From: a virus
IMG/VR virus record: IMGVR_UViG_3300024054_000008
Coordinates: 32,001 to 96,000 of that record
Length of the DNA: 64,000 nucleotides
Direction: 5' to 3' (one strand)
Shown here piece by piece: positions 31,936 to 50,206 of the stretch. Made by a program: the position numbers and the translations under genes. How positions within the stretch are numbered: position 1 is the first letter of the stretch; the number at the start of each line of letters is the position of its first letter. A model generated the notes under the pieces. The model saw nothing but the letters and a program-made list of their open reading frames with translations. It was not told where the DNA came from and did no database searches.

Positions 31936-32883
31936 TCAAACCGGGTCCAAAAATCCAAGAGAATCAGAAATTATTATTTTCTTGCCAGACCCAACTTTGA
32001 AGGCTGAAGAATCTATAACAGAATTGAAATTTTTTCTGAGGATTTCGTCAGCAATTTCAAAATTTTCAGTCGATTCAATTTTGAAATTATCTAGTGGGTC
32101 TATGTTCCTGAACCCAACTAATTCGTAATTAAGATCAATCCTTGGTCTCATGTTTATGATTAAATTTCTTTCACGTTTTGAACAGCCTGGAAAACCAGAT
32201 GCGTACAACGCATCGATCGTCAAATTCTGACTTAAATTTGCAGCAATTAATCTTCTCAATCTTGGTACGCCAGGTATGTTGTCTGATGTATCACCAGTCA
32301 ATGATTTAAATAATCTTATACAGTTTGGTCTAACTTTTACGTCTTTAAAACCTTCTTCATAGACACGTTCCGGATCATAAAACCAATTGTCAGAATTTGA
32401 TTTAGGTCTAAATAAAATAACATTATCATTGACCAATTGATAAAAGTCTTTGTCAGAAGATATAATAATGTTCAATTTATCACAATTTTGTTTTACGAAG
32501 CTACTAATAAGATCATCGGCTTCTTCATGAGGATGCCAAAATATGTCAACACCGAATAAACCAAATAAATGAACAATAGCGTCAAAATCACTTTTTGCTT
32601 CAAAACCATCACTGAGTTCCACACTTAAATTCGAAAAGATTGGTTCACGCTCCCTGTTCTTATAACTTGGATCAAGACGCAAACGCATTTCTGGTTTTCC
32701 ATCCAAGAACAAAAAAATTTTTCCACGGTTTGGAATTTTCCTAATCCAAGATGACAAAACATCAAATACACCAGTGACAAGCGGCCTGTTAGAATCAGAT
32801 TTTACAAATGCATGAAAGATTCTATGAATAATGTTATTACCATCAATCAAAATATTAGATTCTATTGATTTACGTCCAAACAT
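31936..32883 (-). CDS. 5'-3' exonuclease / flap endonuclease (Pol I N-terminal type)
   Basis: LIDGNN, EADD, SSDKDFYQL, LTGDTSDNIPGV. Confidence 0.92.
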   Translation of the reverse strand: MFGRKSIESNILIDGNNIIHRIFHAFVKSDSNRPLVTGVFDVLSSWIRKIPNRGKIFLFLDGKPEMRLRLDPSYKNREREPIFSNLSVELSDGFEAKSDFDAIVHLFGLFGVDIFWHPHEEADDLISSFVKQNCDKLNIIISSDKDFYQLVNDNVILFRPKSNSDNWFYDPERVYEEGFKDVKVRPNCIRLFKSLTGDTSDNIPGVPRLRRLIAANLSQNLTIDALYASGFPGCSKRERNLIINMRPRIDLNYELVGFRNIDPLDNFKIESTENFEIADEILRKNFNSVIDSSAFKVGSGKKIIISDSLGFLDPV

Positions 32884-41082: not shown

Positions 41083-43335
41083 TCATCCATCGACCACATC
41101 TTCAGTTTTCAATTCTCTAAGTTTGTCACTAACAAACTGCGATAAATTTGTATTCCTAATTGTTTCTTTATTGTTTGATACAGAAACATCTAATGCTCTC
41201 GGGTCACCAAACAAAAACACTTTCTTTTTTGCTCTGGTTATGGCAGTGTATACAAGATTCCTGTAAAGCATCGGACCGTAAGACATTGTCATTGGCAACA
41301 AAATATAATCACCTTCTAAACCTTGATAACGATGAGCAGTGCAAGCATACGCAACACGTAATACTTGTCTGGCTTCATCAATCGAAAAATTGAATATTCT
41401 ATCAATATATTTTGGCGGATTCGATTCGGAATCAAACCAATTAAATATTTTAATTTCAATTATTCCTTTTTTAATTGATATCTTTTGAACTTTTCCAACA
41501 TCACCATTAAATACCATTCTGTCGTAATCATTTTTAATAATCATAACTCTGTCACCTTCATACAGATCTGACTCACCATGATTTAATTTGGCGGCCGTTC
41601 CATTTATAAAATTAGAATTTAATACTTTTCTAAGTTCTGTGTTTAAATTATTAACACCGAGATCGCCGTCATACATTGGTGCTATTACTTGAAAATTGGC
41701 GTCTTTTTCCTTTAATTCAGATGTTATTTTACGTAGTTCACAAACAACATCAGATGGATTAAATTTGAAGAATAAAAAATCATTTTTAGCGTGGAACGCT
41801 ATGTCAACTGGACCACCGTTCAAAATTTGGTGTGCAGCCCTTATAATACCTGATTCACCTTCTTGCCTATAAATACGAGTTAAGTTAATGTGCGGAACGT
41901 CAGAACAACTAAATAAGCTTTTAAGAACAGCTCCGGGGCCAACTGACGGAAGCTGCGCAGAATCACCAACCATAATTAATATAACATTATCAGGAAGTGC
42001 GCTAACTAAATGATAAAATGTTGATGAATCTAACATACTAACTTCGTCAACAATCACTGCATCAACACGATATTTATTATATTTATTAAATTCCCAAACC
42101 CCGTCTCTACCGCACCCAAGAGCCCTATGAACTGTGTACGCTGGTTCTTTGGTCAATTGTGAAAGACGTTTAGCTGCTATGCCAGTTGGTGACATGAGAG
42201 TAAAATCTAACTTATTCTTTTTAAATAAGTAAACAAATAAACTCATTAAAAGTGTTTTACCAGTTCCTGGGTAACCAGAAACGACACAAACTTTTGAATT
42301 TTTCAACAAGTAAAAGGCTTGCTTTTGTTCATCGGATAACTCAAGATCATTCAAAGACTCAAATTCTTTTAAACATACTTCAAGATCACCAAGATTTCTA
42401 GTTGGTTTAGATAATATTTTAGCCAATGAATAAGAGGATTGGTTTTCTTGTTCCCAAGAATGACTTTGGTAAATTGATGTATTGTGCAATACTATTCTAC
42501 CATCTTTTTCAAGATCAAGAAGATTTGGATAATAAACTGGGTCTGAAATTGTGTTACCATTTGAGAACAATTCAAGATTGTGTTTTTTAAACAATTTGCT
42601 AACAGAATTTTTTATTTGGTCAGATGTTGCAAACACATGTCCTTCACTTGTTGAAAGTTCATTCAAGGCAAACATTATTATTGCTTTGATCCTTCTAGGA
42701 TCATCAACTCCAATACCAAGTTTTCTGGCGGCTTGATCAGCCGTGTAAAACCCAATCCCAGAACAATCAGCAAGTAAATATGGGTTACTCCTAATAGCAA
42801 GATTTGTGTTAACGCCAAATTTGTTAAATACAGATCTAATTTGAGATGGACCTAACCCCAAATCTCCAAGAAATATTGCTGCAGTTCTTTTTTCAGAAGA
42901 TTCTGACCATTCTTTCAATATTGAATCAATTTGTGTTTTCTTTAAAAAATCAAGAGCTTTTATTTTTCCCGGGTCTGAATCAAGAACATTTGGAAGATCA
43001 TCACCAAATATATCATACAAACGATTCGCCGTTATTATGCCAATAGATGGAACACTAGAAATTAAATAAGACACTATTCCATTTTTACCCTTCTCTGGTA
43101 TAACTTCGCATGAAGTTGCATGAAGTTGTTTACCATAAGTTTGATGATCTACATATTTACCGTTAAATCTAACCTTAAGTCCCTTACTTAATAAAATTTC
43201 TGGGAACGATCCCTTTACATCTACTGTTTTTTTATTACCATCAAGTTCAACTTTAAGTATATGAAATCCAGTATCTTTCTTCTGAAAGATAATAGACGAA
43301 ATATTACCAACTATTGTCTCTGATTGATCAGACAT
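41083..43335 (-). CDS. recD2: RecD2-like SF1B helicase
   Basis: N-terminal OB and HhH region (NPYLL...GIGFYTADQAA), Walker A GYPGTGKT, APTG-like SPTGIAA, DEVSM, GDSAQLPSVGPG, LTRIYRQ, YTAITRAK. Confidence 0.92.
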   Translation of the reverse strand: MSDQSETIVGNISSIIFQKKDTGFHILKVELDGNKKTVDVKGSFPEILLSKGLKVRFNGKYVDHQTYGKQLHATSCEVIPEKGKNGIVSYLISSVPSIGIITANRLYDIFGDDLPNVLDSDPGKIKALDFLKKTQIDSILKEWSESSEKRTAAIFLGDLGLGPSQIRSVFNKFGVNTNLAIRSNPYLLADCSGIGFYTADQAARKLGIGVDDPRRIKAIIMFALNELSTSEGHVFATSDQIKNSVSKLFKKHNLELFSNGNTISDPVYYPNLLDLEKDGRIVLHNTSIYQSHSWEQENQSSYSLAKILSKPTRNLGDLEVCLKEFESLNDLELSDEQKQAFYLLKNSKVCVVSGYPGTGKTLLMSLFVYLFKKNKLDFTLMSPTGIAAKRLSQLTKEPAYTVHRALGCGRDGVWEFNKYNKYRVDAVIVDEVSMLDSSTFYHLVSALPDNVILIMVGDSAQLPSVGPGAVLKSLFSCSDVPHINLTRIYRQEGESGIIRAAHQILNGGPVDIAFHAKNDFLFFKFNPSDVVCELRKITSELKEKDANFQVIAPMYDGDLGVNNLNTELRKVLNSNFINGTAAKLNHGESDLYEGDRVMIIKNDYDRMVFNGDVGKVQKISIKKGIIEIKIFNWFDSESNPPKYIDRIFNFSIDEARQVLRVAYACTAHRYQGLEGDYILLPMTMSYGPMLYRNLVYTAITRAKKKVFLFGDPRALDVSVSNNKETIRNTNLSQFVSDKLRELKTEDVVDG

Positions 43336-43344
43336 AAATGTTAT

Positions 43345-44136
43345 TCAGCTCCTACCGCACATAGAATAAAGATCAGACTCGGATATGACTCTAACTCCAT
43401 GTTGTGTTGCTTTCTTCATTTTTGAAGAAGTCGTATTATTGTCATTAGTTACGAGATATGACAACCCTACACCAACAGTTCCCTTCACAATTCCACCAGC
43501 ATCCATTATTATCTTTTCGACAGTTTTTCTTGGTTTAGTTAAAGCACCAGTAATACAAAATGACAAATTAGAAAGTGGGCCAGGAACATCACTAATGATG
43601 TTCAATACAGTTGACAAATCAATAATAATATCTTTCTTATCTTGTATTCCATGGTATATTATGTCAGCTGTCTTATTTCCTATATTTTGAACTCTAGCAA
43701 AATCATCAATGCTGGCTGAAATAACTTTATCAACTGTGTTTAAACCGCAGCTAACTATGTCTGTTGCTGTTGCTATACCAAGTAATTGAATATTCAAAGC
43801 TGATAATAATAATTGTAATGGTACTGATTTTTGGTCATGTAATTGTTTATAACATTTTTCGGCAACTTTTTTACCAGAACAACACTTAGAAATATCATCA
43901 ATACTTAGTCTATATAAATCAGCAATAGACGACACATTTGGGTTATTCTGGTCTGTAAGTTTATTTATAAGGGAATCACCCCAAAACAAAAGTCCAAGCT
44001 TTTCAACCCAAACTGAAACAGCCCCGGATAATTTAGATGGGCATGCTTTTGATCTACAATATAAAAATTGTCCTTCTTGCGTTAAAGATGAATTGCATTC
44101 TGGGCAAAAATCAGGTATTTGAAAGTATTCATTCAC
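43345..44136 (-). CDS. ligA: NAD-dependent DNA ligase, C-terminal part (Zn finger, HhH, BRCT)
   Basis: PDFCPECNS...C....C, HhH IGNKTA, BRCT FCITGAL...GG.V.G.V...LSYLV...SSKMKKA..HGV.VI.E. Confidence 0.9.
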   Translation of the reverse strand: MNEYFQIPDFCPECNSSLTQEGQFLYCRSKACPSKLSGAVSVWVEKLGLLFWGDSLINKLTDQNNPNVSSIADLYRLSIDDISKCCSGKKVAEKCYKQLHDQKSVPLQLLLSALNIQLLGIATATDIVSCGLNTVDKVISASIDDFARVQNIGNKTADIIYHGIQDKKDIIIDLSTVLNIISDVPGPLSNLSFCITGALTKPRKTVEKIIMDAGGIVKGTVGVGLSYLVTNDNNTTSSKMKKATQHGVRVISESDLYSMCGRS

Positions 44137-44151
44137 TTAATAAATGTACAT

Positions 44152-44685
44152 TTATTCTTCAGGCTCTTTTTCTTCCTCTTTTGGCCCTTCTTCTGTTTCT
44201 TCTTCAGTACCAGCACCCTCAGCAGGTGCTTCAAACTCATCGTAAGAAGGTGGCGGAGAAGCGCCGGGGGGCGGCCCTGGTGGAGGTCCGGACGATTCAA
44301 GTTCGGAATGCTGAACTTCTGCACCACCACCAAAAACAGTTTCAGATGGTACTATGTCTAAATCACCTTTATAGAAAGCCCTAGAAAATTCAGAAACATC
44401 CCTACCAAGATCTAAAACTCTTTCAGAAATATTCTCTAATGTGGAGAGTTCATTGCCAGCAAAATCAGTTTGAAGTCTGGCCAATTTTGCAAACGTCATA
44501 TGTATATCCTTTAAGATATCTGCAATATAACTATTAACTCTGTGCCAATTTTCATCTCTTTCAACTAACAACTTTTCTTGAACAGCCTGAGCCACAATAT
44601 GAAATGGGCTAGAAATTTTCTTGTTCATATCAAGTTTTTCCAGATTATTTCTAACTTCCAAAGCTGATTTAGCAAATGAACTCAT
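44152..44685 (-). CDS. Hypothetical protein with Pro-rich and acidic tail, lying between the ligase halves
   Basis: 177 aa, GGAG SD, GPPPGPPPGASPPP and EEETEEGPKEEEKEPEE. Confidence 0.75.
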   Translation of the reverse strand: MSSFAKSALEVRNNLEKLDMNKKISSPFHIVAQAVQEKLLVERDENWHRVNSYIADILKDIHMTFAKLARLQTDFAGNELSTLENISERVLDLGRDVSEFSRAFYKGDLDIVPSETVFGGGAEVQHSELESSGPPPGPPPGASPPPSYDEFEAPAEGAGTEEETEEGPKEEEKEPEE

Positions 44686-44749
44686 GTTATACTCCGGTGT
44701 CTAAATCAAAAAATAACAAAGAGCCTATTATTTCAGCGTACTATTTTAC

Positions 44750-45826
44750 ATGAGTGAAATAACGGAACTGTCAGAAAAATTAAAGAATGCCAGAAATGCT
44801 TATTACAATTTAGATCCGATACTATCAGATTTAGAATATGACGCATTAAAGTCAAGATTACAAGAATTGGACCCGTTAAATGAAGAAATAATATCAATTG
44901 GTGCAGAAATACAATCTAATACGCCATGGGAGAAAATTGCTCATAATATACCAATGGGATCACTCGAAAAGGTAAATTCAAAAAATGAATTTTTTGAATG
45001 GTGCTCAAACACAAAGTCTAAAGAATTTCTTATTACACACAAAATCGATGGTTCAAGTTTAGAAGTGATATATGAACACGGAAAACTTACTAAATGTTTA
45101 TCAAGAGGTGATGGTTACGAAGGCGAAAATATAACAATAAATGCCATCAAGATACCAAATGTGCCAAGGATTATAAATGCACATGAAGACATAACAGTCC
45201 GTGGTGAAGTGGTTATGTTAAAATCAATTTTCAAAGAAAAATATTCAGATGAATATGCAAATCCAAGAAACACAGCGGCTGGAAAATTAAGAGATAAGAA
45301 AAACAAAGGTGAAGATTGTAAAAACCTTCATTTCTTTGCATATACGATGTTTGGGCCAAAATTAAATACAGAAGCAGAGCAATTCAAAACACTATCAAAT
45401 TTAGGATTTGATACACCAAATGTTAATGTTGGTGATATTGATATGATGATTCAAACATTTGAATCAATTAACAGAGAAAATATACCATATGAAATAGATG
45501 GAATGGTAATAAGAATAAATGATTTACAACATCAGGCATCAATGGGTGAAAAAAACATGAGACCGCTTGGCCAAATTGCTTGGAAATTTGATCCAGCAAC
45601 AAGCGTGTCAACAGTTGTTAACATTAAATGGCAAGTTGGACCGTCTGGCAGAGTTTCACCTGTGGCAGTTGTAAAACCAATAAATATAGGTGGAGTTGAG
45701 ATAACAAATATTTCTTTACACAATTTATCCATGTTTAAAGATTTGAGTCTTTACAAAAATTGCAAAGTTCTCATATCAAAAAGGAATGATTTAATACCAT
45801 TCATCGAAAAGCGCATTGATGATTAA
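44750..45826 (+). CDS. ligA: NAD-dependent DNA ligase, N-terminal part (domain Ia, adenylation and OB domains)
   Basis: YYNLDPILSDLEYD, KIDG, RGEV, NPRNTAAG, EIDGMV, IAWKF, WQVGPSGRVSPVA; stops after NDLIPFI. Confidence 0.92.
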   Translation: MSEITELSEKLKNARNAYYNLDPILSDLEYDALKSRLQELDPLNEEIISIGAEIQSNTPWEKIAHNIPMGSLEKVNSKNEFFEWCSNTKSKEFLITHKIDGSSLEVIYEHGKLTKCLSRGDGYEGENITINAIKIPNVPRIINAHEDITVRGEVVMLKSIFKEKYSDEYANPRNTAAGKLRDKKNKGEDCKNLHFFAYTMFGPKLNTEAEQFKTLSNLGFDTPNVNVGDIDMMIQTFESINRENIPYEIDGMVIRINDLQHQASMGEKNMRPLGQIAWKFDPATSVSTVVNIKWQVGPSGRVSPVAVVKPINIGGVEITNISLHNLSMFKDLSLYKNCKVLISKRNDLIPFIEKRIDD

Positions 45827-46089
45827 TCGTCTGATGGAACAATAACAGACGTTTTATTAGAATTTTTCACCATATCGGCCAATTTTTGCATTGATTCAAA
45901 TGGAATCAAGGTAACTCTTACAGTTTTACCGACCATAGACGACAACGAAGCCTGAACATCAAACATTACGCCTTCATCATCAACCAAAACATGTCTTTTT
46001 AGTTCGTCATTAAAAATAACAACACCATCCACAATTAGACCGGCGTCATACCCATACGCATACCTATCACGTTCATTATCAATTTCCAT
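45823..46089 (-). CDS. Small hypothetical protein
   Basis: The ATG at 46089 is preceded by TGG-TATTAT-N5; the ORF track starts at a TTG at 46104. Confidence 0.6.
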   Translation of the reverse strand: MEIDNERDRYAYGYDAGLIVDGVVIFNDELKRHVLVDDEGVMFDVQASLSSMVGKTVRVTLIPFESMQKLADMVKNSNKTSVIVPSDD

Positions 46090-46189
46090 ATCAAATAATA
46101 CCAATCAGGCCAATTGTTCGTCTTTCTTCGGAAAGTTCAAGTGAGCAAACTTACCACAGTAACAATCATGTCAAATATAGTTCTATCTA

Positions 46190-49100
46190 CTAAGAACATC
46201 CACTTGTGGACCCACACGATTTACACAAATAACAACTACCATTTCTAACTGTCAATGACCCGCATGTTGTACATGGCGGTCCACTAAAATCTCTCTTATT
46301 ATTTTGTTCAATTTGGGTAATAGGCGCAATAGATTCACTATTCTTTGAGATTGAAGCCGCTGGTTGTGAATCTGGTTCTTCGAGTCTATAAGCTATGCCA
46401 GTTACTTCACCACTATAATAACGAATATCAAGATATTTCATTAAATAATCATATAGACTCTTAGCAAAACGAATTTTTGGGTTCCTTGTCATACCAGCCG
46501 GTTCAAATCTAGTATCGACAAAACTGCGTATGAGTTTCTCAAGTGGCACCCCATATTGAAGCGCAATCGAAAGAAGTTGAGTGTAGCCGTCAATCAATCC
46601 TGATATGGTAGAACCAGGCTTACCCAATTTCAAAAATACTTCACCAAGTTTTCCATCCGGATATTCATTCATTTGTATATAACCTTTATATCCGTCAATT
46701 TCAAATCGATGACGGTGTCCGCTTATATCCTCTGGAAGACGCCTTCGTTGTTGTATTGGTGATGGACCAGAATCAGAAAACACAATTGCTCCGTTTTGTT
46801 CACCAACTCGTTCTTTTGTAGCAAGTGGCTGTGATAATTTCGAACCATCTCTGTATACAGATACACATTTCAAACCAAGTTTCCATGATTCCATATAAAT
46901 GTCTGATATATCTTGCGGTGTAGCACTATTTGGTAAATTGACAGTTTTGCTTTGAGCACAAGTAATTAACGGCTGTATAGCAGCCATCATTGTTATATGT
47001 GCCATTGGATCTAAACATCTACTTGAATCACCAGATGGCATTGCACAATCAAATACATGCAAATGTTCATTCTTGAATTCTGGCGCACCCTCTATACAGT
47101 CATTATCTTCTATATATTTAGATATGACAGCGGTTTCTTCATCGGTATAACCTAAAGCTCTCAAACCATCCTTTGTGGCCTGATTAACGAGTTTTAACAC
47201 GCCACCGCCAACTAATGTCTTGTAACTAACTAAAGAAAACGCTGGTTCTATTCCAGTCGTATTCATACCCATCAAGAATGACACAGTCCCAAGCGGGGCT
47301 TGAAGACTTGCTTGAGAAATTGAATACCCATATTTTTTACCAAGACGTATTGTTTCTTCCCAAACTTCTGCACTCTTACTAACAATATCATCACCAAGTG
47401 GGTCAGAGGATAGAGACCACCTTCTCAAAATATCATCATCAGCCCGTTGATGTTTTTCCATTATTGAAAGCATATCTTCACAATTTTTTTCAAAGTCAGC
47501 AAACGTTCCAATTCTTGCGGCTAATTGTGCTGATACCTGATAAGCTAGACCAGTCATTAAACTAGCCATTCTTGCAGCAATAACTCTTCCTTCATTCGAA
47601 TCATAACTATAGCCTTGGCTCATAATCAATGAACCAAGGTCACCATAATTTAATCCAATCGGGCGCAGTTTATGTGAATTTTTTGTAATTAAATCGGTCG
47701 GATAATCAGCTTTTTCAATAATTGAATTTTGTGAAATCACAAAAACACGTACAGCTTGTTTAAATTTCTCAAAATTAAAAACACCACCATCAAAAAATTT
47801 TGTCAAATTCAAAGCACACAAATTGCACGCAGTGTTGTCAATATGCGCAAATTCGCTACACTGTGGAATTCGTACACCTTCAGCTATAATTGTGTGGGTC
47901 GTGAATTCGGTCATATTGTAAGTCAACTCGACACGTCCAGTATCATCAACAGATGCTACGCTGTCGTGCCACACGTCATGAATTGGATCAGAATGACCAT
48001 CCGGAAGAAAATCATCCAATTGAGCCTGCTTGCGATCGGACAAAAGACCGCCAATTTCTTTCATGCCATCACGCAATTTCCTGAGAGAATGCCCATAAAC
48101 AGCCAACTCGTGAAGCGTCCGTTTCGAATCGTACGTACAAACCTCGCCAGAAGCTGATGTATATGTAAACTTCCCGGACCTAGAAGCAGAATTTCTATCC
48201 TGCATTATGGTCGATTTGATGCCCATATTAAGCAAAATCGCCTGGACATCCTGAAGTAATCCAAGGCTCATACTCGAAAGCCTTAATTCTCTCGTCGGAA
48301 TGTTATCGCCGTGACCTTTCGCTGACATACGAAAGGTCCCATCGGCTGATATAAGACCAGACAGGAATGCAAGTTGATTCAGACGAGGCGATTCAAACAC
48401 ACCAGGTTGTATCCGCTTGTTATAAGATCTAGATCCAGCAGGGCAAGCAATAGCCTCAATGGATCGAAAGAGACCAATACGACGAATTCTCATATAATCA
48501 GGTGATTCACCAATAGACCCACTCTGAGTTTTTAGTGAAAATGGAATTTCCTGTTTATGCAAAAAAGACGAAATCTTCGATAGAATGTCCTTGTCATGCT
48601 TTCCGAAACACATTCCGATTTCGCCATGTTGGAAATCAGACTTCCATCCTTTTTCGGTGTGTTTGCGAGAATGACGTACAGTCTCTGTCATCCACCCATC
48701 GCCAACAACAAACCCAGCAATCTTGAACCATTCAACAGAATCAGAAAGACCACAGTCGAAATTCCCAAAAGAACCTTCAGCGCACTGAATATCAACCTGG
48801 TCTCCTACCACCAATTCGGCCGCCGGCTTCTTTGTTCCATCTGAAAGCAAAAAATTATGATTCGGAGTAACTACAAGTTCTCTTCCGGACTTGAACTTCA
48901 CAGACAAAAGCGGATTTTCACCAGTCGGGAAGACAACAGCTGGTCTCATCTCAACACGGTCACCAAGATGAACGGCTACTTTCACATCTCCGTCAAAGAT
49001 GCGTTCATAAAGGTCGGCGATTTGAATAAGTCCAAATTCGGTTGCAATTTTCGTCTCGGCAGCAAAACACGGATTCGTTGATCGTATTCTTCCACTGTTT

Positions 49101-50206
49101 GGAACAGTATGCCATTTATTTAATGTTGTACTAAATTGGACGCCAGGGTCAGCACATAACCAAGCAGCTTCAGATATTTCTTTCCACAATTCTTTTGCTT
49201 TGTAAGTCTTAACTGGTTTGTCGGAGCAATCTAACGTCGTCCAGTCATCGTCATTCAAAACTGCCTGCATAAATTCATCAGAAATGCTGACTGAATGATT
49301 AGCATTCTGATATAAAACATTCTTATATGCACCATTTGGATCATCATAATCTCTACTGTATCCACATTTCAAAATCAAATCATGCGCACGTTTTTCTTCT
49401 ACAGCTTTGGACTTAATAAAACCTGGTCTACCGTCTTTTGTTTCCAAAATATCAGGATGGTCAATATCCAAAACAACCATTTTTGCAGCATTCCGGCAAG
49501 AACCTCCAGATTTCATAGCTTGTGCATATTGATCAAGACCGCGCATCCAAGCAAGCGGTCCACTCACATAAGCACCGCTTGATAACTTTTCATAAGAACT
49601 TCTTAAACTAGAAAGATTAGCACCAGACCCAGAACCGCCAGCAAATATAATTGCTTCTGATTTTTGAAACTCCATAATGGAATCTAATGTATCGTCAACA
49701 CCGGATATAAAACATGCAGAGGCAGCTTGCTTTCTGTCTGGTATTCCTAAATTAAACCAAACCGGAGAGTTAAAAGCCCCGAGTTGGTGAAGAAGTGCCC
49801 AAATTAATTCTTCTTCGTAAATCTTTGCGTCAAGTTCAGTATTAAAATAGCCCTGTTCATCTGCCCATTTTCTCAATGTCTTTGCAACACGCAAAAAGAC
49901 TTGTTTAACAGATGATTCTTTCGTTTCACCAACATACCTGAAGTATTTACTTGCAACTATATTTGTGCAATTTTGCTCCCACCAATCTGGAACTTCAACA
50001 TTTTTTTGCTCAAAAATAACCTTTCCATCTGAATTTTTTATGCAAGCGTCAACAAATTTCCATTTGATCTCATCAAATGGATGGATGTTGTCTTTAGTAA
50101 AAACTCTGGACCAGCGCCCTATATCTTCAGCAATTTTTGATTTACCATTCGATTCTTCACGAATTGGAATAACATTATCAATTACCGCTGTTCCGAGACT
50201 TGACAT
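46190..50206 (-). CDS. nrdJ: Class II (B12-dependent) ribonucleotide reductase with intein
   Basis: FNSPVWFN, SACFI, GSG.N.S.LR, RxAAKM, NP|C-SE, ACNL, APLGT; C-terminal TSCPD-like domain and Zn ribbon. Spliced length 935 aa. Confidence 0.93.
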   Translation of the reverse strand: MSSLGTAVIDNVIPIREESNGKSKIAEDIGRWSRVFTKDNIHPFDEIKWKFVDACIKNSDGKVIFEQKNVEVPDWWEQNCTNIVASKYFRYVGETKESSVKQVFLRVAKTLRKWADEQGYFNTELDAKIYEEELIWALLHQLGAFNSPVWFNLGIPDRKQAASACFISGVDDTLDSIMEFQKSEAIIFAGGSGSGANLSSLRSSYEKLSSGAYVSGPLAWMRGLDQYAQAMKSGGSCRNAAKMVVLDIDHPDILETKDGRPGFIKSKAVEEKRAHDLILKCGYSRDYDDPNGAYKNVLYQNANHSVSISDEFMQAVLNDDDWTTLDCSDKPVKTYKAKELWKEISEAAWLCADPGVQFSTTLNKWHTVPNSGRIRSTNPCFAAETKIATEFGLIQIADLYERIFDGDVKVAVHLGDRVEMRPAVVFPTGENPLLSVKFKSGRELVVTPNHNFLLSDGTKKPAAELVVGDQVDIQCAEGSFGNFDCGLSDSVEWFKIAGFVVGDGWMTETVRHSRKHTEKGWKSDFQHGEIGMCFGKHDKDILSKISSFLHKQEIPFSLKTQSGSIGESPDYMRIRRIGLFRSIEAIACPAGSRSYNKRIQPGVFESPRLNQLAFLSGLISADGTFRMSAKGHGDNIPTRELRLSSMSLGLLQDVQAILLNMGIKSTIMQDRNSASRSGKFTYTSASGEVCTYDSKRTLHELAVYGHSLRKLRDGMKEIGGLLSDRKQAQLDDFLPDGHSDPIHDVWHDSVASVDDTGRVELTYNMTEFTTHTIIAEGVRIPQCSEFAHIDNTACNLCALNLTKFFDGGVFNFEKFKQAVRVFVISQNSIIEKADYPTDLITKNSHKLRPIGLNYGDLGSLIMSQGYSYDSNEGRVIAARMASLMTGLAYQVSAQLAARIGTFADFEKNCEDMLSIMEKHQRADDDILRRWSLSSDPLGDDIVSKSAEVWEETIRLGKKYGYSISQASLQAPLGTVSFLMGMNTTGIEPAFSLVSYKTLVGGGVLKLVNQATKDGLRALGYTDEETAVISKYIEDNDCIEGAPEFKNEHLHVFDCAMPSGDSSRCLDPMAHITMMAAIQPLITCAQSKTVNLPNSATPQDISDIYMESWKLGLKCVSVYRDGSKLSQPLATKERVGEQNGAIVFSDSGPSPIQQRRRLPEDISGHRHRFEIDGYKGYIQMNEYPDGKLGEVFLKLGKPGSTISGLIDGYTQLLSIALQYGVPLEKLIRSFVDTRFEPAGMTRNPKIRFAKSLYDYLMKYLDIRYYSGEVTGIAYRLEEPDSQPAASISKNSESIAPITQIEQNNKRDFSGPPCTTCGSLTVRNGSCYLCKSCGSTSGCS
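47861..49069 (-). mobile_element. Intein (403 aa, LAGLIDADG) ending in Gln, at the RNR catalytic cysteine
   Basis: TNP|CFAAETKI ... VTPNHNF ... AGFVVGDG, LSGLISADG ... THTIIAEGVRIPQ|CSEF. Confidence 0.92.

Follow-up and report, generated by a model that had tools for sequence, protein, structure and literature searches.

The window analysed here is a stretch of 64,000 nucleotides (nt) covering positions 32,001 to 96,000 of the IMG/VR virus record IMGVR_UViG_3300024054_000008. The window has a G+C content of ∼34% and comes from a 182.7-kb viral contig with a completeness rating of ∼43%. A contig of this length at this completeness implies a very large phage, a jumbo phage. In the window, an NAD-dependent DNA ligase (LigA) is encoded by two open reading frames (ORFs), each present in one copy in the genome. 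The two ORFs, here called the N-half and the C-half, lie on opposite strands, 613 nt apart, and another gene occupies those 613 nt. A sequence-only reading made before this analysis had described the same two ORFs, and both were found exactly where it had placed them. The features of the locus are as follows.

44750..45826, plus strand: LigA N-half, 358 aa; domain Ia (nicotinamide mononucleotide (NMN)-binding), nucleotidyltransferase domain (NTase) with KxDG (K98), OB fold.
43345..44136, minus strand: LigA C-half, 263 aa; Cys4 Zn finger, HhH, BRCT; GTG start, immediately preceded by an in-frame TAA.
44152..44685, minus strand: middle gene, 177 aa; helical core, Pro/Gly-rich segment, acidic tail.
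44686..44749: divergent intergenic region between middle gene and N-half, 64 nt; -10-like TACTAT 5 nt before the N-half ATG.
44152..45826: inverted block made up of the middle gene and the LigA N-half, 1675 nt; its orientation is opposite to that in two related loci, L009 and L012 (below).

The minus strand holds nearly all genes between window positions 1 and 56145. Outside these minus-strand genes, the N-half is the sole plus-strand ORF of at least 120 aa in that interval. This bears out the earlier remark that the N-half is inverted relative to its neighbours.

We compared the N-half with Pfam, PHROGs and LigA structures. Pfam assigned the adenylation domain (PF01653, E 7e-47) and the OB fold (PF03120, E 3.4e-17, residues 287–356). 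The protein covers positions 8–382 of 656 in phrog_3869, a full-length phage LigA profile, and aligns with residues 7–387 of E. coli LigA (2owo) at E 1e-36. Within this alignment, the N-terminal 60 residues correspond to domain Ia and match E. coli LigA from residue 7. Across N-only and fused relatives, Y18, D27 and D31 of domain Ia are invariant and Y19 and Y30 are conserved; these are the NMN-binding Tyr/Asp residues. One relative, L006, gave a weak match to PF22745 (Nlig-Ia). The N-half retains the family-invariant residues K98, D100, G101, R119, G120, E153, R173, N174, D250, G251 and K279, and every column that is invariant across 144 relatives is intact in it. A Lys-to-Arg change in motif IV was considered as a sign of decay and rejected, because the same column varies between K, R and E in fused enzymes. 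The protein terminates with the OB fold, 0 residues past the OB end of the family.

The C-half takes up where the N-half stops. It begins 10 residues ahead of the first Zn-finger cysteine, and its four Zn cysteines (C11, C14, C27 and C32) are invariant in the C-half alignment of relatives. Pfam identified HHH_5 (PF14520, E 1.4e-9) and BRCT (PF00533, E 2.7e-12) behind the Zn finger. The protein covers positions 389–652 of phrog_3869 and aligns with residues 402–655 of Thermus filiformis LigA (1dgs) at E 2.5e-25. Thus the two halves tile one LigA profile and are complementary, with no overlap and no domain missing. The break falls in the short linker between OB fold and Zn finger, and no residues were lost or added there. 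Compared with full-length LigA (E. coli 2OWO, T. filiformis 1DGS, phrog_3869), the same six modules (Ia, NTase, OB, Zn, HhH and BRCT) are present in the usual order with the same catalytic motifs. These modules form one chain there and are distributed over two polypeptides, from two ORFs on opposite strands, here. The domain boundaries, the intactness and the complementarity of the halves had all been claimed from the sequence alone, and the profile and structure alignments agree with each of these claims.

Two ORFs could still give one chain if a split intein or trans-splicing joined their products. Phage genes fractured by split inteins exist, one DNA ligase included (Dassa et al. 2009, PMC2677866), and this phage tolerates an intein in its ribonucleotide reductase (RNR). 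As in those cases, a phage replication gene is present as two ORFs with a gene between. However, the known fractured genes carry intein halves and an endonuclease gene between them, all on one strand (PMC2677866), and none of this is present in the window. A Pfam search found no intein domain in either half, and there are no extra residues at the new termini. With 0 residues beyond the OB end in the N-half, and only 10 residues before the first Zn cysteine in the C-half, there is no room for intein halves. We therefore consider joining into a single chain extremely improbable; the earlier reading had likewise seen no intein or intron signals at the break.

Related loci were collected from IMG/VR and other sources. 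The first two relatives found, L005 and L006, have the same layout as the window. Their proteins are ∼99–100% identical to each other, so that they are essentially one phage, and their identity to the window is 54% for the N-half and 62% for the C-half. A search for related loci with the C-half as a single protein returned no loci, and the C-halves of relatives were located by genome search and tblastn. A census of 80 IMG/VR loci encoding relatives of the N-half gave the following arrangements.

N-half identity 44–59%, 17 loci: all split, with the C-half upstream on the other strand and a homologue of the middle gene in between.
N-half identity 43% or less, 60 loci: fused.
N-half identity 43% or less, 2 loci: split on one strand, insert ∼800 nt.
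N-half identity 43% or less, 1 locus: cut by contig end.

Contigs carrying the 17 inverted loci reach 436 kb in length. Further inverted members (L013 and L014/L015) came from other data sources. By sequence there are 19 distinct inverted loci from many metagenomes, and the two halves occur together, within ∼3.3 kb, in all 19. The split is thus conserved in related phages. The spacing of the genes varies in detail: L027 has ∼2 kb of extra DNA between the middle gene and the N-half (L027:3924-6001), and L005/L006 carry a 266-aa ORF between the middle gene and the C-half (L006:4635-5435). Searches of Pfam and PHROGs gave no match for this ORF, and it does not resemble the TnsA-like endonucleases described below.

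To measure selection, we counted nonsynonymous and synonymous differences between pairs of loci. The window and L006 differ at 0.26–0.31 nonsynonymous changes per site, with synonymous sites at or near saturation, much as in the adjacent RecD2 helicase. Within the clade, nonsynonymous rates (dN) were 0.12–0.31 in five closer pairs, again with saturated synonymous sites (proportion of differences at least ∼0.7), which is comparable to a fused outgroup pair. The C-half was at least as conserved as the N-half in four of these five. Since synonymous sites are saturated in the closest usable pairs, the ratio of nonsynonymous to synonymous rates has only an upper bound, which is well below 1; the L005/L006 pair differs at too few sites to help here. 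Purifying selection acts strongly on both halves.

These data bear on whether the layout is an artefact of a misassembled contig, or a broken ligase gene heading for loss. The contig was assembled from a metagenome and is only ∼43% complete, and an ATP-dependent ligase encoded elsewhere on it (below) could render LigA dispensable. Against this, independent assemblies, drawn from many samples and three data sources, share the layout, which is neither misassembly nor chance. The frames are intact and the catalytic residues invariant, and synonymous sites have reached saturation while nonsynonymous change remains strongly limited. Relatives have both halves, and neither half is degenerating. An artefact or a decaying gene is therefore very unlikely.

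To explain the opposite strands, we compared the inverted loci with their closest non-inverted relatives. In the order below, rightward is the direction of the neighbouring genes.

L009: fused, 654 aa, 50% identical; 202-aa gene leftward, LigA rightward, RecD2 rightward.
L012: split, colinear; 157-aa gene leftward, N rightward, C rightward; N stop and C start 1 nt apart.
Window and other inverted loci: split, inverted; N leftward, middle gene rightward, C rightward, RecD2 rightward.

In L009 and L012, a homologue of the middle gene (L009:7339-7947; L012:7428-7901) lies upstream of the ligase on the opposite strand, that is, divergent from it. In the window, L006, L013, L014 and L026–L041, these two genes are turned around together. 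As a result, the gene that runs against the flow is the N-half in inverted loci and the middle gene in their non-inverted relatives. Because the homologue is already divergent and upstream in L009 and L012, one inversion of the block [middle gene + LigA N-part] yields the window layout. The single inversion explains the layout, and accounts for both the gene between the halves and the N-half pointing against its neighbours. The orientations are observed directly; the event is reconstructed from them. The inversion would have involved a 1.7-kb block, the clade-specific small gene and the N-part of the ligase as a divergent pair, turned over once. Its inner breakpoint would have been at the OB|Zn linker or at a split already present there. 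After the inversion, the small gene would have come to lie between the halves, pointing at the C-half.

The middle gene had been called unrelated to the ligase, and here the comparison corrects the sequence-only reading. A homologue adjoins the N-part of the ligase in every clade member, whether fused, split or inverted, and moved with the N-half in the block inversion. No homologue turned up in the more distant loci of the census, so that the gene is a conserved neighbour found in this clade only. Identity to the window protein is 54% in L006, 45% in fused L009, 44% in L013 and 25% in L012, and the L009 and L012 homologues share the helical core and acidic tail. The core carries the motif ERDxxWxRVNSYIADxLKD...LARLQ; a stretch rich in Pro and Gly comes next, then a strongly acidic tail. 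The middle gene had no Pfam or PHROG match, and its ESM Atlas matches were at chance level only. The protein could be a ligase cofactor or regulator.

We used trees to address the order of events: split first, inversion first, or reversal. In trees of RecD2, of the ligase and of a four-gene flank (seven loci), fused L009 was placed close to or inside the inverted group. Approximately unbiased (AU) tests of an exclusive inverted clade on these seven-locus trees gave p = 0.052 and 0.069. A tree of 28 ligases recovered a clade with 100% support in the Shimodaira–Hasegawa-like approximate likelihood ratio test (SH-aLRT); it contains the 19 inverted loci together with L009, L012 and L016, and its outgroups are fused. 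Within it, L009 groups with three inverted members at 98% support. For this 28-ligase set an exclusive inverted clade was marginally rejected (AU p = 0.034), and it was not rejected (p = 0.17) after the long-branched L012 and L016 were removed. The data fit one old inversion with L009 as a sister lineage. They lean towards a later reversal and re-fusion without establishing it. The full form of this idea is that fission is reversible: the inverted split would be ancestral, the single chains of L009 and L016 would have been re-made by flipping the block back and fusing the frames, and L012 would be an intermediate. We regard this as possible, with the odds against it.

A programmed switch is a different matter. 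If the block flipped reversibly within the population, it could alter ligase expression or restore a colinear gene. The position of the non-inverted L009 (fused) and L012 (colinear) inside the inverted clade in maximum likelihood trees, and the marginal rejection of an exclusive inverted clade at p 0.034, speak for such a switch. However, the flanks of the block have no long inverted repeats, only imperfect inverted matches of 12–22 nt that are at chance level, and no recombinase gene was found among the neighbours of the block. Each assembly shows one orientation, and the halves are 40–55% diverged between loci, so that flips appear to be rare evolutionary events rather than a switch. Flipping the window block would leave a stop codon and a separate start in place and so would not fuse the frames. 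A switch is accordingly very improbable.

The divergent arrangement has consequences for expression. In an alignment of inverted, fused and colinear loci alike, a -10-like hexamer (GTGTAAAAT, TATAAT or TACTAT) lies 4–8 nt upstream of the ATG of the N-part. In the window (44727-44752), L014, L013 and L012, the hexamer (TACTAT, TAAAAT or TATAAT) often follows TG and no Shine-Dalgarno sequence is present. A hexamer only 4–8 nt before the start, with no Shine-Dalgarno sequence, suggests that the ligase mRNA is leaderless or near-leaderless. Since the -10-like element remains beside the start of the N-part whether the locus is inverted, fused or colinear, the N-part and the middle gene appear to form a self-contained divergent transcription unit. 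Judged from its sequence, the region 44686-44749 probably holds back-to-back promoters. A scan for sigma70-like promoters gave no signal above shuffled expectation, and no terminator-like sites were predicted between 43000 and 46500. The C-half starts 15 nt past the stop of the middle gene in the same direction, and is therefore probably co-transcribed with it. Both halves may then be driven from one 64-nt region, and hence possibly be co-regulated.

A LigA in two pieces is not new in principle. The earlier reading held that LigA is normally one chain and treated the split as essentially unprecedented, and this did not hold. Bacteriophage T5 has long been annotated with ligA and ligB (PMC3632103), and among phages N-only ligase genes occur often and repeatedly. 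Deposited T5-like genomes annotate ligase subunits A and B (Slocum, Vibrio phage Ceto), with two other genes between A and B in Ceto, all on one strand. PHROGs holds separate families for N-only and C-only ligase proteins. In the PDB, entries 9hu3 and 9i5i each combine a chain A, "DNA ligase (NAD(+))", with a chain B, "DNA ligase subunit B", from a T5-type phage. Slocum LigB matches 9hu3_B at E 8e-77, and the C-half of the window matches the same chain at E 7e-12. The literature collection searched contained no paper for 9hu3 or 9i5i and no biochemical study of T5 LigA/LigB, only annotation-level mentions.

The T5-type (Demerecviridae) ligases are split at the same site. Slocum subunit A aligns through its last residue to the window N-half; subunit A ends with the OB fold, and subunit B starts a few residues before the Zn finger. 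The sizes, 326–339 and 248–258 aa, are similar to the 358 and 263 aa of the window. In contrast to the window halves on opposite strands, the T5 genes are on one strand, A then B. The window N-half is only ∼32% identical to T5-type subunit A, and it scores 339 bits on phrog_3869 against 183 bits on the subunit-A family phrog_3359. T5-type proteins were absent among the 150 nearest representatives. Since the best PHROG is a full-length family, T5-type proteins are absent from the nearest representatives and the outgroups are fused, the split in the window is, on these comparisons, independent of that in T5.

The window also resembles "genes in pieces", the arrangement described for the split nrdA of Aeromonas phage Aeh1 and a free-standing homing endonuclease (PMC3045599). 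An essential DNA-metabolism gene is cut at a domain boundary and would function from its pieces, and in other ligase lineages a TnsA-N-like gene lies in the gap. Unlike in that system, no search identified the intervening gene of the window as an endonuclease, the halves run on opposite strands, and their termini gained no interaction segments.

Two readings of the intact halves have to be weighed. LigA biochemistry and the 2OWO structure indicate that Ia-NTase-OB alone self-adenylylates and that nick joining needs Zn-HhH. Some viral NAD ligases lack the C-terminal domains. The N-half could then be a minimal, self-sufficient NAD ligase, with Zn-HhH-BRCT as an independent DNA-binding or BRCT scaffold for other replication or repair proteins. 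Several features suit such separate jobs: the halves lie on opposite strands with a gene between, no extra interaction segment is present at the new termini, and the C-half is directly upstream of the RecD2 helicase, an Mre11-like phosphoesterase and a PD-(D/E)XK nuclease, plausible partners for BRCT and HhH. However, the halves always stay together within ∼3.3 kb in the 19 inverted loci. All four cysteines of the LigA-specific Zn finger are retained in the C-half, which is conserved much as the C-part is in fused enzymes. The T5-type subunits A and B were solved in one PDB entry, and the Ia-NTase-OB of bacterial LigA alone joins nicks poorly. Separate jobs are thus unlikely, though more probable than the other rival explanations.

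We favour a functional two-piece NAD-dependent DNA ligase, predicted to assemble from the N and C pieces, whose layout arose by one block inversion, and we give this a probability of about 0.7. The two-subunit ligase already proposed from the sequence gains indirect support from purifying selection, the intact residues and the pairing of T5-type subunits in one PDB entry. The N-piece (Ia-NTase-OB) would carry out all the chemistry: self-adenylylation from NAD+, transfer of AMP to the 5′ phosphate, and sealing of the nick. The C-piece (Zn-HhH-BRCT) would supply the DNA-binding half of the clamp around the nick, plus the BRCT domain. The pieces would assemble on nicked DNA in the manner of T5 LigA and LigB, with the N-half expressed from the other side of the shared 64-nt control region. 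The domain content, the intact residues, conservation, purifying selection, synteny and the orientation of the block are direct results. We infer the physical association, the division of labour, the sharing of promoters and the order of split and inversion; for assembly and labour, the grounds are conservation and precedent.

Several points weigh against the two-piece ligase. That the halves bind each other, or bind DNA jointly, is itself a deduction. No interaction module was added at the new termini, where the tails are 0–9 residues, unlike in the split Aeh1 NrdA (PMC3045599). The phage also encodes an ATP-dependent ligase, so the NAD ligase need not be the replicative one. By inspection of the sequence, the GTG start of the C-half has no visible Shine-Dalgarno sequence. 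No terminator was detected between the N-half and the upstream transcription that converges on it, so that expression levels are uncertain. On the trees and AU tests, the inversion may have caused the split or followed it. On balance, the OB|Zn split and the intact halves of the sequence-only reading stand and its two-subunit proposal is likely, and its treatment of the split as essentially unprecedented and of the middle gene as unrelated needs correction.

The two-piece principle is already known from T5-type phages. What this locus adds is that the halves sit on opposite strands, that this arrangement is stable throughout a clade of jumbo phages, and a hint that fused forms could have arisen from it again.

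The genes around the ligase are common to all these loci: class II RNR, ligase, RecD2 helicase, Mre11-like phosphoesterase and PD-(D/E)XK nuclease. In the window, the genes next to the halves are as follows.

45823..46104, minus strand: 93-aa ORF, convergent with the N-half, 3′ ends overlapping by 4 nt; outer edge of the inverted block.
41083..43335, minus strand: RecD2-type helicase, 750 aa; Pfam AAA_30, HHH_RecD2, OB_YrrC, SH3_13; synteny anchor.
46190..50206, minus strand: class II ribonucleotide reductase, 1338 aa with LAGLIDADG intein; synteny anchor on the other side.

The 93-aa ORF had no Pfam or PHROG match. The RecD2 helicase is directly downstream of the C-half, and this position is kept in all syntenic relatives. 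The RNR matched Ribonuc_red_lgC (E 2e-107), Ribonuc_red_2_N, LAGLIDADG_3 and Intein_splicing in Pfam. With its intein, this class II (B12-type) enzyme has 1338 aa, compared with 785–936 aa in intein-free relatives, and the intein is also present in the fused-ligase relative L009.

Outside the window on the same contig (∼155.6–157.5 kb), we found a compact ATP-dependent DNA ligase of 343 aa with PF01068 and PF14743 (L023:1186-2217). A LAGLIDADG_2 endonuclease gene (L023:2144-3088) directly follows it and overlaps its 3′ end. By domain content, therefore, the phage carries two DNA ligase systems, one NAD- and one ATP-dependent, and replication and repair tasks may be split between them. Elsewhere on the contig, a 138-aa ORF (171463-171756, minus strand) also resembled BRCT, though weakly (32% identity over 90 residues, E 3e-6).

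To place the split within the ligase family, we compared the 148 nearest cluster representatives, the window's own protein included. Thirty of the 148 end within 23 residues of the end of the window N-half, and 114 run on for at least 250 residues. The tree needs 25 changes between the split and fused states, of which at least 17 are forced by well-supported branches. Within this set, the OB|Zn linker has been split independently on at least 17 occasions.

In four loci of other lineages, a TnsA-N-like (PF08722) endonuclease gene of 271–304 aa lies exactly in the gap between the N and C parts of LigA. Their positions are as follows.

L018:3138-4022: TnsA-N-like gene in the gap.
L020:2510-3385 (L019/L020): TnsA-N-like gene in the gap.
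L091:7088-7903: TnsA-N-like gene in the gap.
L102:6974-7888: TnsA-N-like gene in the gap.

This family looks like a homing endonuclease aimed at the OB|Zn linker, and the TnsA-like endonuclease is a likely cause of the recurrent split.

What is known of ligase chemistry is unchanged by this result. It does show that a replication enzyme of six modules can be encoded as two pieces, and that these pieces can be separated in gene order and strand over long evolution, as the 19 diverged loci with saturated synonymous sites indicate. If fission is indeed reversible, the small acidic-tail protein would be a candidate for a third component of the two-piece ligase, or for its regulator. The recurrent break at the linker and its repeated occupancy by TnsA-like genes are of use in annotating phage genomes and in selecting natural two-piece ligases for study. 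Before an N-only "truncated ligase" is taken for a pseudogene, its partner should be sought on both strands.

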